This document shows positions 48,504 to 52,774 of a stretch of 64,000 bases of DNA, in pieces. The position numbers and the translations under genes are program-made. The stretch is from Candidatus Sumerlaeota bacterium (GTDB taxonomy: Bacteria; Sumerlaeota; Sumerlaeia; JADFCW01), in the NCBI GenBank assembly GCA_017161705.1, contig JADFCW010000001.1, positions 4,521 to 68,520 of the forward strand, given 5' to 3'. Every line of letters begins with the position of its first letter. The stretch's first letter is position 1. The notes below the pieces were generated by a model. That model did no database searches and was not told where the DNA came from. It was given only the letters and a program-made list of their open reading frames with translations.

Positions 48504-49568
48504 ATGAATCACCCTCCTGAAATCTGCTACCTCCGTGCGATGCAGGAGATTATCCAGCGCACGGTGACGGAAAGCCTTCGCGCCAGCGGAGCGACCGCGC
48601 GCGCCCAGGTGGCCAAAGACGCGGGCGGCGACATTATCTACGCCATGGACGCCGACGTCGAAAAAGAGCTGGTAAGCTTCTGTAAAATGTGGGGCGCCCA
48701 TCAGCGCTTCATCCTTATCGCCGAAGGCGTCGGCGAAACCGGCCGCGCGGCATTCCCGCCCGACACCACGCCCGATAACGCCGAGTTCTATCTCCTCGTG
48801 GACCCGATAGACGGCACCCGCCCGCTGATGTATGACAAACGCAGTGCATGGTCGCTGGCGGCAATCGTCCCCACTCCGGACGCAAGAAGCAAGAGGTTAG
48901 ACGCCGGAGGAGAGGGAAGAAAAGACCACGAAAGGAAAGCGTGTCCCACTTTGCGCGATGCGAGTGTCGCGTGCATGACTGAGCTGCCGACGTCCAAACA
49001 ACTTTACGCCGACTGCTTGTTCACTTTGCGCGGCGAACGGCCGCGACTCGTGCGCCGGCGCCTGGACACCGGCGCGGAGGTCGAGCATCCTTATTCGCCC
49101 AGCCGCGCCGACACCATCGAGCACGGCTTCGCCATGCTCACCAATTTCTTCCCTGGCGGAAAAGAAATGGTCTCGGCCATCGAGGAAGAACTCGTACGCG
49201 AGCTGGGCGGTTTGCGCAGCGGCCGCGCGATTGTTTTCACCGATCAATATCTTTCGACCGCCGGCCAGTGGTACGAGCTGATCGTCGGCCACGATCGTTT
49301 TAACGGCGATCTGCGCGGGCGGATGATCGAGCGGGGCATTCCGGCCGGCGCGGTTCCTGCTCTTGCTGCTCATCCTTACGACTGCTGTGTTGAACTGCTT
49401 GCGCGCGAGGCCGGCGTCATCATCACGGATCTCGAAGGCCGTCCTTTTGACGCTCCGCTCGACACGGAGTCGCCCGTCTCATGGCTGGCGTATGCCAACG
49501 AGGCGCTGCGGCAAAAGATCGAGCCTGTTCTGCAGCGTCTGCTGCGAAAGCACGGGCTGATTTCTTGA
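48504..49568 (+). CDS. Inositol monophosphatase/FBPase-like family protein
   Basis: IMPase metal-binding motif LLVDPIDGT, within a divergent, long (354 aa) protein. Confidence 0.7.
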   Translation: MNHPPEICYLRAMQEIIQRTVTESLRASGATARAQVAKDAGGDIIYAMDADVEKELVSFCKMWGAHQRFILIAEGVGETGRAAFPPDTTPDNAEFYLLVDPIDGTRPLMYDKRSAWSLAAIVPTPDARSKRLDAGGEGRKDHERKACPTLRDASVACMTELPTSKQLYADCLFTLRGERPRLVRRRLDTGAEVEHPYSPSRADTIEHGFAMLTNFFPGGKEMVSAIEEELVRELGGLRSGRAIVFTDQYLSTAGQWYELIVGHDRFNGDLRGRMIERGIPAGAVPALAAHPYDCCVELLAREAGVIITDLEGRPFDAPLDTESPVSWLAYANEALRQKIEPVLQRLLRKHGLIS

Positions 49569-49612
49569 GCCGAACCAACAGGGTTTCGACCAATTCCACC
49601 ATAAAAACAAAT

Positions 49613-49641
49613 GGAGGAGAGAATATCGTATTCTCTCCTCC
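49613..49641 (-). terminator. Perfect 13-bp palindrome acting as a minus-strand intrinsic terminator
   Basis: GGAGGAGAGAATA-tcg-TATTCTCTCCTCC. On the minus strand it is followed by TTTGTTTTTAT; on the plus strand no U-tract follows. Confidence 0.5.
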
Positions 49642-49801
49642 ACAGGGGTCATGGTAAGTGATGCCTTGCAGGCGTTCCTGCCCTTCCGTTTCCGCGGTTC
49701 GCCTTGGCCGACGCCCACGCCTTGTGCGGTGGGCTGCAGAAGCCGCGGGACGTTTTGGAATCATCCTGCAGGAAACCCGCATGCCGAAGCGGGCGGCTCA
49801 C

Positions 49802-49876
49802 CTACTTTTTGCATTTCTTAGCCGCTTTCTTCGCCGGTTTTTTCGCGGCGGGTTTCTTGACGGCCTTTTTTGCCAT
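49802..49876 (-). CDS. Tiny ORF, 24 aa, Lys/Ala-rich (MAKKAVKKPAAKKPAKKAAKKCKK)
   Basis: ATG preceded by a G-rich ribosome-binding-like site (GGGAGAAAGGGG). Too short for the ORF track. Paralogous to the ORF at 49995..50042. Confidence 0.25.
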   Translation of the reverse strand: MAKKAVKKPAAKKPAKKAAKKCKK

Positions 49877-49994
49877 TTGTGTCACCCCTTTCTCCCTGGC
49901 TGACCCGGGATTTCCATCTCCGTCTTAGAAGGTTTGCATGGACGGAACCCCGTTCGCAAGCCTTCCGGAGACAGAAAGACAAAGTGTGGTGCTG

Positions 49995-50042
49995 TTACTT
50001 CTTGCCCTTCTTGGCGGGCTTCTTCGCCTTCGCCTTTGCCAT
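49995..50042 (-). CDS. Tiny ORF, 15 aa, Lys/Ala-rich (MAKAKAKKPAKKGKK)
   Basis: ATG preceded by AAGGGAAAGGGGG. Shares the CCCCTTTC(T)CCC upstream motif with the ORF at 49802..49876. Confidence 0.25.
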   Translation of the reverse strand: MAKAKAKKPAKKGKK

Positions 50043-50547
50043 GGGTTATTCCCCCTTTCCCTTATGGTCGGACCGCATGGGCAGCGGCCGGCTGGTTTTG
50101 CGAGGGACCCGCTTGTTTCCTCACGAATCGGCCAATTTCGTGTCGTTCGCCCGGTAACGGGAGCACGGCGGAAACAGGTGGCCGCCTGCAAAACTCAGTG
50201 GAATCCAACTAAAAGACTGTGCAGCGCGTCAAGAAAAATAACATAGTTTAGCAAAAAAACTTTATGGCACAAGAGGGGTGTTTGAAATTGCGGCGGAACC
50301 GGACACAATTTCGTGCGGTTGAAAAAACTGCTGGTAAAAACATGGGATCAATAATTGGCCGCTTTTTCTCCATTCCCGCGAAAACCGGATAATTATAAAA
50401 GATCGGATTGCACCTGTCTTGCGCGGCATTTCGTTTTCCAATTTCTCCTGCTCGCAGGGCTGGAAAAACGGTTGCGTTTCCGCGACGCACTGTTTTAGGG
50501 TTTGCTGGGTTTTCGCCAGGATGACGGCGTGAGGAGTTTTCTGCGAA

Positions 50548-50904
50548 ATGGCCAAAGGCAAAACCACCGCCAGTCGAACCATTCGCGTCGAGAATCCCCT
50601 CGGCCTGCATGCCCGTCCGTGCAGCCTGCTGGTTCAGACTGCCAGCCATTTTCCCGACACGGAGGTCTGGGTAACCAACGGCCGCCAGCGGGTGAATGGC
50701 AAAAGCATCATGGGGGTTTTAGGCCTGGCGGCTGCCGCGGGCACGGAACTGCTCATCGAGACCAAGGGGCGCAATGCCGAACAGGCGCTCGAAGCCATCT
50801 GCCGCGTGATCGCCGCGCTGGAAACGTTCGAGCAATATCAGACGCGCGAGGAAACGCTGGATGCATGGCGCAAGCTGCTTGCCGAAGTCACATCCAGGGA
50901 GTAG
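50548..50904 (+). CDS. ptsH: Phosphocarrier protein HPr with ~30-aa C-terminal extension
   Basis: Active-site His15 context NPLGLHARP and a regulatory Ser46-like context (VNGKSIMGVLGL). 118 aa versus the usual ~88. Confidence 0.85.
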   Translation: MAKGKTTASRTIRVENPLGLHARPCSLLVQTASHFPDTEVWVTNGRQRVNGKSIMGVLGLAAAAGTELLIETKGRNAEQALEAICRVIAALETFEQYQTREETLDAWRKLLAEVTSRE

Positions 50905-50911
50905 GGTCTTT

Positions 50912-52774
50912 ATGCCGTCCGCCGTACGCTCCGCTTCGTCCTCGCGCCAGATCGTGCTGAAGGGTATCCCGGCCTCGCCGGGGATCGCGATTGGGCGCGC
51001 GTATGTGTTCGACCCGCGCCAGCCGGCGGTAGCCGCGCTGGAGATTGCCGAGCGAAATGTCGAGCGCGAGGTCGAGCGGTTTCTCAAGGCGATCGAACGG
51101 ACGCGGCGGCAGATTCAGAAACTCCGCCAGCAGGTGGCGCGCCAGATCAACGAGCGGCAGGCGGCCATTTTCGACACTCACCTGATGATGCTGGATGATC
51201 CTTCGTTTCAGGAGGAAACCGTCCGGCGGATTCGCGCCGAGCGACTGAACGCCGAATATCTGCTTCAGTCGCAGGTGCAGAAGCAGGCTTCGCGTTTCGA
51301 GAAAATCCAGGACGAGATGTTTGCCGCCCGCGCCGCTGATCTGACGGATGTGGCTCAGCGCGTGCTCGCCAACCTCATGACGCACGAGCGTCCCGCCCTG
51401 TCCGCGTTGACCAAGCCGGCCATTGTTGTCGCACGCGACCTGGGGCCTTCCGACACCGCGCAGATGAACAAGGAGACCGTCATCGGATTTGCGACCGACC
51501 GCGGGGGGCCCACCTCGCACACGGCCATCATGGCCAAGGCTTTGGAAATTCCTGCTGTCGTCGCTACGGGCGAACTGACGCAACATGTCCGGTCGGGCGA
51601 TTTGCTGATTCTCGACGGCGTCAACGGCTACGTCATTCTGCGCCCAACGCACGACACACTGCGGGACTATGAAAAGTCGCAGGCGGCGATCGAGAAGTTC
51701 GAGCAGGAACTGGCAAAGAATCGCCACCTGCCGGTGGAAACGCTCGACGGCCACGCGGTTGAAGTCGGGGCCAACATCGAATTGCCGGAGGAGGTTCCGC
51801 ACGTCATCGAGCACGGCGCCCAGAGCGTCGGGTTGTTTCGGACGGAGTTTCTGTTTCTGAACCGCGACCGTCTGCCGCGCGAGGACGAACTGTTCGAGAT
51901 GTATCGGTCGGTGATAGCGGCACTGCATCCCCGCACGGTGATCTTCCGCACGCTGGACCTGGGGGGCGACAAGTTCGCCAAGACGGTTCCCCTGTCGAAA
52001 GAGCTGAATCCCTTTTTGGGGCTGCGCGCCATTCGCCTGTGTCTGCATTATCCGGAATTATTTCGGCGGCAGTTGCGGGCCATCTTTCGCGCCAGCATCT
52101 ATGGCCACATCAAGATCATGTTCCCCATGGTTTCGAGTCTCGAAGAAGTGAGAGCCGCGAAAACCATTTGCGAGGAAATCCAGCGCGAGCTTCGCCAACA
52201 TCGCATTGCATATGATCGCGACATCGAGATCGGCATCATGATAGAAACGCCGTCGGCGGCTGTGGCGGCCGATCTGCTGGCCCGAGAGGTGGACTTTTTT
52301 TCGATTGGCACGAACGACTTGATCCAATACACGCTGGCCGTGGACCGCGTCAACGAAACCGTTGCCCATCTCTATGAACCGCTTCATCCGTCGGTCTTGC
52401 GCCTGATTCATAATGTGATCGAGTCGGGGCACAAACAGGGCATTTGGGTGGGCGTCTGCGGCGAGTTGGCCGGCGATCCCACGATGGCCGCGATTTTGGT
52501 GGGCATGGGCATTGATGAATTGAGCATGGGCCCGGTGCGCATTCCCGAAATCAAGCAGGTGATTCGCGGCCTGCGGCTGAGCGATGTCCAGGCGATGGCG
52601 CGCGACTTGCTGAAACAAGCCTCCGCCCGGGAGGTCCGCGAAGTCGTGCGCCGCTATACCGAGCGGCTGCCGATTCGCCCCAAATGGCCGACACCGCCGC
52701 TGTTGAAACCGATTCGTGCGAGGGGAAGCGCGGCGGGCATTGTCCGCCGCCTGGGCGAACCGGTAGAGGTGTGA
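50912..52774 (+). CDS. ptsI: Phosphoenolpyruvate-protein phosphotransferase (PTS Enzyme I)
   Basis: GGPTSHTAIMAKALEIPAVV (phospho-His site), PEP-utilising TIM barrel (RTLDLGGDK, IGTNDLIQYT). Confidence 0.95.
   Translation: MPSAVRSASSSRQIVLKGIPASPGIAIGRAYVFDPRQPAVAALEIAERNVEREVERFLKAIERTRRQIQKLRQQVARQINERQAAIFDTHLMMLDDPSFQEETVRRIRAERLNAEYLLQSQVQKQASRFEKIQDEMFAARAADLTDVAQRVLANLMTHERPALSALTKPAIVVARDLGPSDTAQMNKETVIGFATDRGGPTSHTAIMAKALEIPAVVATGELTQHVRSGDLLILDGVNGYVILRPTHDTLRDYEKSQAAIEKFEQELAKNRHLPVETLDGHAVEVGANIELPEEVPHVIEHGAQSVGLFRTEFLFLNRDRLPREDELFEMYRSVIAALHPRTVIFRTLDLGGDKFAKTVPLSKELNPFLGLRAIRLCLHYPELFRRQLRAIFRASIYGHIKIMFPMVSSLEEVRAAKTICEEIQRELRQHRIAYDRDIEIGIMIETPSAAVAADLLAREVDFFSIGTNDLIQYTLAVDRVNETVAHLYEPLHPSVLRLIHNVIESGHKQGIWVGVCGELAGDPTMAAILVGMGIDELSMGPVRIPEIKQVIRGLRLSDVQAMARDLLKQASAREVREVVRRYTERLPIRPKWPTPPLLKPIRARGSAAGIVRRLGEPVEV

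Follow-up and report, generated by a model that had tools for sequence, protein, structure and literature searches.

A conserved minus-strand unit with lysine-rich micro-ORFs and a structured leader RNA opposite ptsH in Sumerlaeota

What occupies the gap of 979 bp between an IMPase-like gene (end 49568) and ptsH (start 50548) in the Candidatus Sumerlaeota contig JADFCW010000001.1? Within this gap of the window, a 64,000-nucleotide stretch of that contig, the initial annotation had picked out two tiny Lys/Ala-rich open reading frames (ORFs) on the minus strand, at 49802..49876 and 49995..50042, and our reading of the sequence and of the ORF list bears this out. Comparison with related loci reveals that the minus-strand unit is one conserved whole, with the ORFs, a 15-nucleotide (nt) ribosome binding sequence, a TTGAC box and a terminator recurring together in related lineages. 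We consider it probable that the gap holds one minus-strand unit of ~600 nt, specific to this group of Sumerlaeota, which encodes polycations resembling the tails of histone H1 on an mRNA stabilized in a manner like that of Bacillus subtilis hbs.

Conservation of the unit and of its reading frames

We compared the window with 13 further lineages (L001, L002, L005, L007, L009, L011, L013, L014, L016, L018, L020, L021, and L023), all of them represented by metagenome contigs or contigs of metagenome-assembled genomes (MAGs) of Sumerlaeota type. The nearest relative by its IMPase-like protein (88% identity) is a single genome locus, that of Candidatus Sumerlaeia MAG SKW40 (L001); metagenomic orthologues of this protein have 67-74% identity, and those of other phyla only ~50%. 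Across the lineages HPr is only 48-74% identical to the window copy, and the lineages are therefore well diverged. The order of FGGY kinase, IMPase-like gene, a gap of ~1 kb with the unit, HPr, and PtsI, confirmed with tblastn, is kept in almost every contig spanning this stretch. A micro-ORF unit sits in the same slot and in the same orientation, on the strand opposite ptsH, in each of the related lineages that we examined. The initial annotation had proposed that MAKK-type micro-ORFs be sought in relatives, and each related gap has one or two. In the window they are as follows.

50042..49995, minus strand: ORF2, MAKAKAKKPAKKGKK, 15 amino acids (aa), net charge +8, stop codon included
49876..49802, minus strand: ORF1, MAKKAVKKPAAKKPAKKAAKKCKK, 24 aa, net charge +12, stop codon included

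The ORFs of the related gaps begin with MAK(K/A), apart from one MGK and one MAQ, and are rich in Lys, Ala, Pro, and Thr throughout. Two ORFs are found in the window and L001 (15+24 aa), L005 (10+21), L007 (11+17), L016 (11+21), L023 (11+20), and L014 (10+18). The downstream ORF stands alone in L002 (23 aa) and L021 (26 aa), and a single longer ORF is present in L009 (83 aa), L011 (66), L013 (65), L018 (45), and L020 (34), so that lengths at the locus are 10, 11, 15, 17, 18, 20, 21, 23, 24, 26, 34, 45, 65, 66, and 83 aa. These longer forms share the Shine-Dalgarno (SD) sequence, the leader, and the terminator with the short ones. The short forms did not result from decay of a longer gene, because their own stops recur in many lineages and the sequence that follows is not Lys-rich. 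As for conservation among relatives, which the initial annotation had raised, the length of the ORFs is not kept (10-83 aa), whereas their start, frame, composition, N-terminal motif, and pattern of synonymous change are.

Substitutions within codons provide the evidence that the ORFs are coding. In protein-guided comparisons, the changes at first, second, and third positions number 2/3/14 between the window and L002 and 1/1/12 between the window and L014. Alignment of low-complexity sequence could bias such counts, and the comparisons were repeated ungapped from the ATG. In the downstream ORF, variable columns by codon phase were then 1/1/8 (six sequences, 10 codons) and 1/1/11 (four sequences, 16 codons), while in the 11-aa upstream ORF L016 and L023 differ by 0/0/5, all 5 changes being synonymous. 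The independent ungapped comparisons pool to 2/2/19 (chi-square p=3.5e-6), and the same changes read antisense are non-synonymous (Leu/Phe). Between the window and L001 the nucleotides of ORF2 are 100% identical, and ORF1 differs by one replaced codon and by two changes at third positions, both synonymous. The excess of changes at third codon positions indicates that the ORFs are translated and under purifying selection.

This pattern can be set against the idea that the ORFs arose by chance in a purine-rich noncoding spacer, or that the RNA is a sponge of CsrA type. A/G-rich sequence of low complexity readily gives Lys codons, and the region has many GGA-containing purine tracts. Chance ORFs are excluded by the codon-phase bias (p about 3e-6) together with positional conservation, the start codon falling 5-6 nt after every exact copy of the 15-mer in the family except for the lost upstream ORF of L002 and L021. 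A CsrA sponge is rejected because GGA is not enriched (13 observed against 14.2±2.6 expected; ANGGA, 5 against 3.8±1.9). We assign these explanations almost no probability.

The composition of the family is uniform. Taken together, the 21 ORFs (~590 residues) contain 287 K, 152 A, 23 P, 21 T, 20 V, 17 R, and 14 G, all of them with repeats of KKxx type; Lys accounts for 49% of residues, Asp and Glu for 0 of ~590, and net charge runs from +5 to +44. The motif MAKKAVKKPAKKAAKK is kept across lineages. Orthologues of ORF1 with 17-26 aa have MAKK[AT][VA]KKPAKKAAKK in common, and orthologues of ORF2 with 10-11 aa occur in L005, L007, L014, L016, and L023.

Peptides that are this short and this highly cationic could be toxins or antimicrobial peptides (AMPs), for example, type I toxins or exported AMPs. 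Some type I toxins reportedly carry Lys-rich tails (PMC5961336). Yet the peptides are composed solely of K, A, P, T, V, G, R, and C, without a hydrophobic or transmembrane segment, a signal peptide, or an amphipathic hydrophobic face. Furthermore, no antisense RNA gene, transporter, or immunity gene is nearby, and the unit holds a fixed position among housekeeping genes. We regard a toxin or AMP as very improbable.

The cysteines of the family have a distribution of their own. All 7 among the ~590 residues occupy one of the three C-terminal positions of the downstream or only ORF, giving the C-termini KKCKK, KKCAK, APCRK, KKC, KACK, GRC, and KKC, and the ORFs of the other lineages finish in K/R runs. 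The Cys codon of ORF1 in the window is at 49809-49807 on the minus strand, and Cys is found likewise in L001, L007, L016, L018, L020, and L023. This bias in position suggests a C-terminal thiol function, for example, disulfide dimerization, metal binding, or modification.

Automatic gene calls over the unit, taken from the source metagenome annotation, are hypothetical ORFs of 85-124 aa without a Pfam match, some of them on the wrong strand. Because these spurious calls cover the unit, the real micro-ORFs are hidden under wrong annotation in the following places.

L005, 5389-5763: spurious hypothetical ORF
L007, 4928-5266: spurious hypothetical ORF
L002, 5239-5496: spurious hypothetical ORF
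L013, 1355-1714: spurious hypothetical ORF

The leader RNA, the ribosome binding sequences, and the ends of the message

Upstream of ORF2, the minus strand has a putative promoter region and a leader that is predicted to fold.

50227..50259, minus strand: putative promoter region, a T-rich tract and then a TTGACG box at 50232..50227
50043..50196, minus strand: structured 5′ leader RNA of ~155 nt, from the RNAalifold consensus and a covariance model
50194-50184/50105-50095, minus strand: helix P1 (GAGUUUUGCGG/CCGCAAAACUC)
50177-50170/50120-50114, minus strand: helix P1b, a CU-rich strand with a purine-rich strand
50166-50159/50150-50143, minus strand: helix P2
50142-50137/50127-50122, minus strand: helix P3, forming the hairpin 50122..50142 with loop AUUGGCCGA
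50089-50084/50076-50071, minus strand: helix P4, a separate GC hairpin followed by the unpaired SD

The TTGACG box, which the initial annotation had placed near 50225, stands 36 nt upstream of GAGTTTTG, the likely 5′ end of the RNA. The arrangement TTTT-N-TCTTGAC with a spacing of 36 nt to GAGTTTTG is kept in all 13 lineages that cover the region (the contig of L020 ends short of it), and from this fixed spacing transcription would start near GAGUUUUG (window ~50196). In all lineages measured, 187-196 nt separate the TTGAC box from the first ATG. A sigma-70-like site ~190 nt upstream of the TTGACG box (50420..50392, minus strand; AAGACA-17-TATAAT, 10/12 match) was not taken as the promoter of the unit, because it is not conserved in L001.

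Several lines of evidence support the structure of the leader. Single-sequence folds repeatedly gave the same architecture, and RNAalifold found 39 pairs in seven leaders aligned with MAFFT. In this alignment, which was not fitted to a structure, 90% of cells pair, compared with 42-46% when partners are slid, and 11 pairs change on both sides, compared with 1-7 in the slid controls. We built a covariance model, R1, from the RNAalifold consensus of the seven leaders, with the window outside the seed. R1 matched the window at 50196..50038 (50.6 bits, E ~3e-14) and recovered all non-seed leaders (L018 with 70 bits, L009 with 64, L011 with 54, L001 with 52, L013 with 39, and L020 with 30). In the model-fitted alignment, the share of paired cells is 84%, compared with 38-52% for slid partners; double changes occur in 35/39 pairs (13-21 in the slid controls), and the covariation score reaches 0.19 rather than ~0.05. 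Helix P3 exemplifies this covariation (CACGAA/TTCGTG, AACGGA/TTCGTT, ATCGAAC/GTTCGAT, GAAAC/GTTTC, CTCTT/AAGAG), and its loop UGGCCG (window UUGGCCGA) is intact in 12/14 lineages, in the first leader copy only.

By these models, the leader is a well-supported covarying RNA motif that is new and absent from Rfam 15. The search with Rfam returned no match at the gathering threshold in the window and only chance-level matches at E<=10 in 49000-51000; for the L007 unit, matches at E<=1 were likewise at chance level only. An alternate pairing in which the CU-rich strand of P1b masks the SD was set aside, with only 5-6 bp possible by eye.

The model also accounts for the two ORFs. Between the two ORFs, R1 detects a second full-length copy of the leader in L002, L005, L007, L014, L016, L021, and L023, which means that leader, SD, and ORF were duplicated in tandem to give the two-ORF form. 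On this evidence from the sister lineages, ORF1 and ORF2 are real paralogues, as the initial annotation had held. What is left of the second copy in the window is shorter.

49877..49994, minus strand: intercistronic spacer, a shortened remnant of the second leader copy

In the window and L001, only 49914..49871 of this second copy still matches R1. The spacer has a hairpin at ~49966..49928, of which the stem differs in sequence in L001 and appears still to pair.

One contig of 9 kb, L010, departs from the common gene order. Its orthologous FGGY kinase and IMPase-like gene (69% identity) are followed by YceD and ribosomal protein L32 and not by the unit and ptsH, and R1 found no leader in the 9 kb of the locus. 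The unit is moved or lost in L010.

Each ORF of the window is preceded by an SD sequence of unusual extent. The initial annotation had noticed motifs at ribosome binding distance before both ORFs, and these are the following.

49896..49882, minus strand: extended SD of ORF1, the 15-mer GGGAGAAAGGGGTGA with GGGAGAAAGGGG inside it, ending 5 nt before the ATG
50063..50051, minus strand: SD of ORF2, AAGGGAAAGGGGG, derived from the 15-mer by divergence, separated from the ATG by 8 nt and identical in L001

GGGAGAAAGGGGUGA is the SD sequence that would face the anti-SD tail of 16S rRNA. The 15-mer GGGAGAAAGGGGTGA occurs once in the 64-kb window, and in the relatives it stands 5-6 nt before each downstream or only ORF, with L007 and L016 as exceptions (1 and 2 bases differ). 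Against a canonical long 16S tail, which may not be that of the host, predicted pairing is -16.8 kcal/mol for the 15-mer and -15.5 for the SD of ORF2, compared with -8.8 for ptsH, -5.9 for ptsI, and -10.5 for a bare GGAGG. On the same tail the 15-mer would form either 12 pairs interrupted by one bulge or an unbroken run of 10. The SDs of neighboring genes are weak, and most predicted folds of the leader leave the SD of the unit unpaired.

A near-identical 15-mer is also found without a start codon. In L002 and L021, which have lost the upstream micro-ORF, the upstream copy lies inside a full-length first leader, differs by one base in each case, and has no ATG within 15 nt.

L002, 5646-5632: SD copy without ATG, GGGAGAAGGGGGTGA
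L021, 5329-5315: SD copy without ATG, GGGAGAAAGGGGTAA

Retention of the 15-mer without an ATG would fit the role of a ribosome-binding stabilizer. A metagenome scan for the 15-mer followed by N5-6 and ATGGC returned 14 contigs, of which 10 belong to this family and 4 have the sequence before unrelated genes.

L015, 1683-1697: 15-mer before an unrelated ORF
L017, 349-363: 15-mer before an unrelated ORF
L019, 2087-2073: 15-mer before an unrelated ORF
L024, 1658-1644: 15-mer before an unrelated ORF

From these four cases it follows that the 15-mer is a general, very strong SD in some organisms and not only a signal of this family.

Downstream of ORF1, a 3′ untranslated region (UTR) of 160-220 nt in all lineages leads to a terminator. 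In the window it contains the following features.

49776..49793, minus strand: small GC hairpin right after the ORF1 stop, CCCGC-UUCGGCAU-GCGGG, then UUUCC
49692..49748, minus strand: conserved 3′UTR element with outer stem CCGCGG/CCGCGG, inner hairpin CCCAC/GUGGG, and an unpaired block
49711..49704, minus strand: the unpaired block with UCGGCCAA (ACGGCCAA-type), reverse complement of the P3 loop
49603..49643, minus strand: intrinsic terminator, with a GGAGGAGA...UCUCCUCC stem (49643..49611) and then UUUGUUUUU

The outer stem of the 3′UTR element has 4 pairs with double changes. Its unpaired block contains CGGCCA, the reverse complement of the P3 loop UGGCCG. A 6-bp core of this complementarity is present in 12/14 lineages and 7-9 bp in 8; in the window, 9 contiguous pairs are possible, and the A of the loop is matched by a U of the 3′UTR in the window, L001, and the distant L013. 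We hypothesize a 5′-3′ contact of the P3 loop with this block.

At the terminator, the initial annotation had described a perfect 13-bp palindrome (49613-49641) with a U-tract in the minus orientation only. The palindrome is there, and TTTGTTTTT follows the hairpin on the minus strand only; the size of 13 bp is too small, as the arms are perfect over 14 nt (49612-49625 and 49629-49642, hence 49612-49642) around a 3-nt loop and reach 15 pairs with G-U counted. Across the 14 lineages the terminator has a 13-bp consensus stem with 7 pairs that show double compensatory changes, around the invariant stem base GGAGGAGA/UCUCCUCC and the T-run. To all appearances, a real and covarying intrinsic terminator ends the unit.

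This layout bears on whether the ORFs are Lys-codon-rich leader peptides that sense the charging of Lys-tRNA and control attenuation. Short Lys-rich ORFs followed by hairpins would suit such a role, as would the GC hairpin and UUUCC after the ORF1 stop. That hairpin, however, is kept in L001 bar one loop change and is not seen as such in more distant lineages. In single-sequence folds, without a dedicated search, no alternative terminator and antiterminator forms appeared over the ORF ends, and elsewhere the homologous ORF has 34-83 aa. Above all, attenuation is rejected because of the gene layout: there is no downstream gene on the strand, and the strong, conserved terminator faces the 3′ end of the convergent IMPase-like gene. 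We consider attenuation extremely unlikely, and lysine-rich leader peptides, one of the readings offered by the initial annotation, fail on the same layout and on the presence of homologous ORFs of up to 83 aa.

The extent of RNA conservation raises a different alternative, in which a structured regulatory or dual-function small RNA (sRNA) is the main product and the ORFs mainly load ribosomes and stabilize the RNA, with peptides of little function. Conservation of the noncoding parts (the invariant 15-mer, the covarying leader, the 3′UTR element, and the terminator stem) equals or exceeds that of the peptides. Likewise, ORF2 is 100% identical in nucleotides between the window and L001, third positions included; L002 and L021 lost the upstream ATG while a near-identical 15-mer stays; and peptide length is very variable. 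Yet the third-position bias points to a constraint at the level of amino acids or codons, even in an 11-aa ORF. Loading of ribosomes alone leaves unexplained the zero acidic residues and the conserved MAKKAVKKPAKKAAKK, and sister lineages have proteins of 34-83 aa. In addition, neither a trans target nor an Rfam family was found. We think it rather unlikely that the RNA is the main product. A peptide-encoding sRNA, another suggestion of the initial annotation, is right in part, insofar as the unit appears to be a structured RNA with a covarying leader and a conserved 3′UTR, both of which that annotation had not seen.

Known relatives of the peptides and of their mRNA, and possible function

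Composition is the feature by which the peptides can be placed. They are best seen as an extreme, miniaturized variant of bacterial H1-like Lys-rich proteins, with a resemblance that is compositional. As in Hc2, BpH1, and the C-terminal domains (CTDs) of AlgP and PhaF, paired basic residues in low-complexity sequence are split by Ala, Pro, Thr, or Val. As in Hc2, BpH1, and the AlgP CTD, the repeat region has no acidic residues and a very high net positive charge. The length of the Sumerlaeota products also changes by gain and loss of repeat units with the frame kept, as in Hc2 and BpH1. In other respects they differ. The H1-like class is ~120-350 aa, usually with an extra domain outside the repeats (the N-terminus of Hc1, the N-terminal domain of AlgP), whereas the Sumerlaeota product is all repeat; Hc2 has 165-237 aa and AlgP 352 aa, against 10-83 aa here (for the two window ORFs, 15 and 24 aa). 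Repeats recur with a period of 4 (KKxx) and not 5 as in Hc2, and the arrangement as tandem micro-cistrons, each with its own SD, is unlike that of bacterial H1-like genes. To our knowledge, a conserved structured mRNA has not been described for bacterial H1-like genes.

Published work gives this resemblance some content. Hc2 and BpH1 are made up of Lys-rich repeat units, and the gain or loss of such units changes their length (PMC2848022). DNA is bound in vitro by short peptides that contain nothing but KPAA repeats, and AlgP is found in association with polyphosphate granules (PMC9239181). The initial annotation had proposed a small transcription unit for micropeptides like the tail of histone H1, and this is supported by the conservation of the unit, the phase pattern, and the H1-like-type proteins of 34-83 aa in sister lineages; the proposed function, binding in the manner of H1-like proteins, is inferred.

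Very small basic proteins are also known from the ribosome. bL37 has 24 aa and bTHX 26 aa, and the size of 10-24 aa and the basic character of the Sumerlaeota peptides recall them. The products might accordingly be tiny ribosome-associated proteins like bL37, bS22, and bTHX, with the leader as an autoregulatory mimic of an rRNA site. A strong SD and a structured leader are typical of ribosomal-protein genes, and bL37 and bS22 are reported from ribosome structures. Like those proteins, which have ~24-33 aa and bind RNA, the Sumerlaeota products are genetically encoded basic peptides. Unlike them, with their defined sequence and fixed length, they are repeats that vary in length and have no sequence match to them. 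Moreover, KKxx repeats with 8-fold length variation are ill-suited to a defined rRNA pocket, no PDB chain, ribosomal proteins included, is similar, and the unit is not linked to ribosomal operons across lineages. A ribosomal role is in our judgment quite improbable.

For the message, the closest parallel is with the mRNA of the HU-type nucleoid protein HBsu, which is abundant and binds DNA (Braun, Durand and Condon 2017, PMC5737220). In B. subtilis, hbs mRNA has a structured 5′UTR with a paired 5′ end, an SD of 10 Watson-Crick and 2 GU pairs, a Rho-independent terminator, and a 14-bp interaction of 5′UTR and 3′UTR, and the initiating ribosome sets its stability (PMC5737220). A strong SD without a start codon can stabilize downstream mRNA in the same organism (PMC5737220). 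The Sumerlaeota unit similarly combines a structured 5′UTR, an exceptionally strong SD, a terminator, and complementary segments in the 5′UTR and 3′UTR. The 5′ end of hbs is base-paired, and the position of P1 at the 5′ end of the Sumerlaeota RNA depends on where transcription is predicted to start. The two leaders share neither sequence nor structural homology. Complementarity is 6-9 nt here, from loop to internal loop, rather than 14 nt. Dependence on RNase Y and RNase J1 has been shown as a feature of hbs, and the hbs product is a folded HU dimer, whereas that of Sumerlaeota is a low-complexity peptide. A second parallel is icaR of Staphylococcus aureus, in which the 3′UTR reportedly pairs with the SD region so that translation is repressed and decay promoted (PMC3868564). 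The icaR mRNA resembles the present unit in having a 3′UTR segment complementary to its own 5′UTR (PMC3868564) and differs in that the complementary 5′ site of Sumerlaeota lies in the loop of a hairpin, at a long distance from the SD.

The reading that we prefer, of H1-tail-like polycations made from an hbs-like mRNA, would work as follows. Like hbs, the mRNA would be adapted to persist and to be translated heavily. Helix P1 may hold its 5′ end, a ribosome resident on the very strong SD would shield the message, the 3′UTR block may pair with the P3 loop and so link both ends, and the terminator hairpin would guard the 3′ end. We propose bulk electrostatic binding because the peptides resemble H1 tails and bacterial H1-like proteins. 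Through their bulk positive charge they would serve nucleic acid, or other polyanions such as polyphosphate, as counter-ions or condensers, with the dose set by the length and copy number of the ORFs.

Several points weigh against this reading. All homologues are confined to one narrow clade (~14 lineages), and transcription start, transcript ends, and translation are all deduced from sequence. The promoter region has no clear -10 hexamer, and a promoter consensus scan did not call the TTGACG site. Pairing of the P3 loop with the 3′UTR is broken without compensation in L007 and L023, and the core is otherwise invariant, so that covariation provides no test of it. The H1-like label is one of composition only. 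In this regard, Pfam had no family, Hc2 and linker histone included, at E<=1 for the forms of 24, 45, 65, 66, and 83 aa, NCBIfam gave a single spurious match (0.068) for short and long forms, and no PDB chain matched at E<=10 (24 aa) or E<=1 (83 aa). A protein search of a large database with the 83-aa form retrieved 8000 candidates of which none scored, probably owing to low-complexity filtering, and an exact-sequence lookup of seven forms (30-83 aa) found none in a collection of 15 billion proteins. Finally, the 8-fold difference in peptide length and the loss of the upstream ORF in L002 and L021 make a precise molecular partner hard to reconcile with the data.

A further reading goes beyond this and is offered tentatively, as a possibility that we ourselves consider unlikely. 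The unit could be a "mini-protamine" system, so far seen only in contigs of Sumerlaeota type, in which tunable counter-ions or condensers of the nucleoid, RNA, or polyphosphate are made in bulk under control of the leader. The leader would sense the balance of polyanions and cations, via feedback from the peptides, Mg2+, or polyamines, alongside the pairing of the 5′ and 3′ ends. The C-terminal Cys would allow redox-dependent dimerization, with valency doubled, and disulfides do likewise in protamines. At 10-24 aa, the peptides would rank with the shortest polycations that we know to be genetically encoded.

Genes this short are effectively absent from annotation, and the locus illustrates that comparative genomics alone can prove purifying selection on ORFs of 10-24 codons. 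The natural series of lengths from 10 to 83 aa in one slot makes it testable how short an H1-type polycation can be and stay useful. More generally, the leader, the extended SD, and the possible 5′-3′ pairing suggest that a distant and uncultivated phylum has likewise evolved very stable, translation-coupled mRNAs of hbs type for its nucleoid proteins.

Observations on the flanking genes

The genes on either side of the gap, and a sequence block before ptsH, are listed here.

48504-49568, plus strand: IMPase-like gene, flanking the gap and convergent with the minus-strand unit
50548-50904, plus strand: ptsH/HPr (Pfam), with ptsI next (Pfam)
50465-50476: CGCAAY(C/G)GTTTT block, minus-strand text CGCAACCGTTTT, ~72-83 nt upstream of the ptsH ATG

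The CGCAAY(C/G)GTTTT block precedes HPr in 12/27 fetched loci (~6 distinct lineages), at a similar short distance wherever checked, and occurs 2 times in the 64-kb window against 0.09 expected. It is probably a promoter or operator element of ptsH. A sigma-54 promoter at the block was considered and dropped, as the GG at -24 varies by eye among the leader sequences of relatives. The longest frame of ptsI opens at 50861, which gives an overlap of 44 nt with ptsH. The PtsI proteins of relatives begin with MPSA(I/V)RS only ~8 nt past the HPr stop. Because PtsI of relatives starts just after that stop, the true start of ptsI in the window is probably the ATG near 50912.

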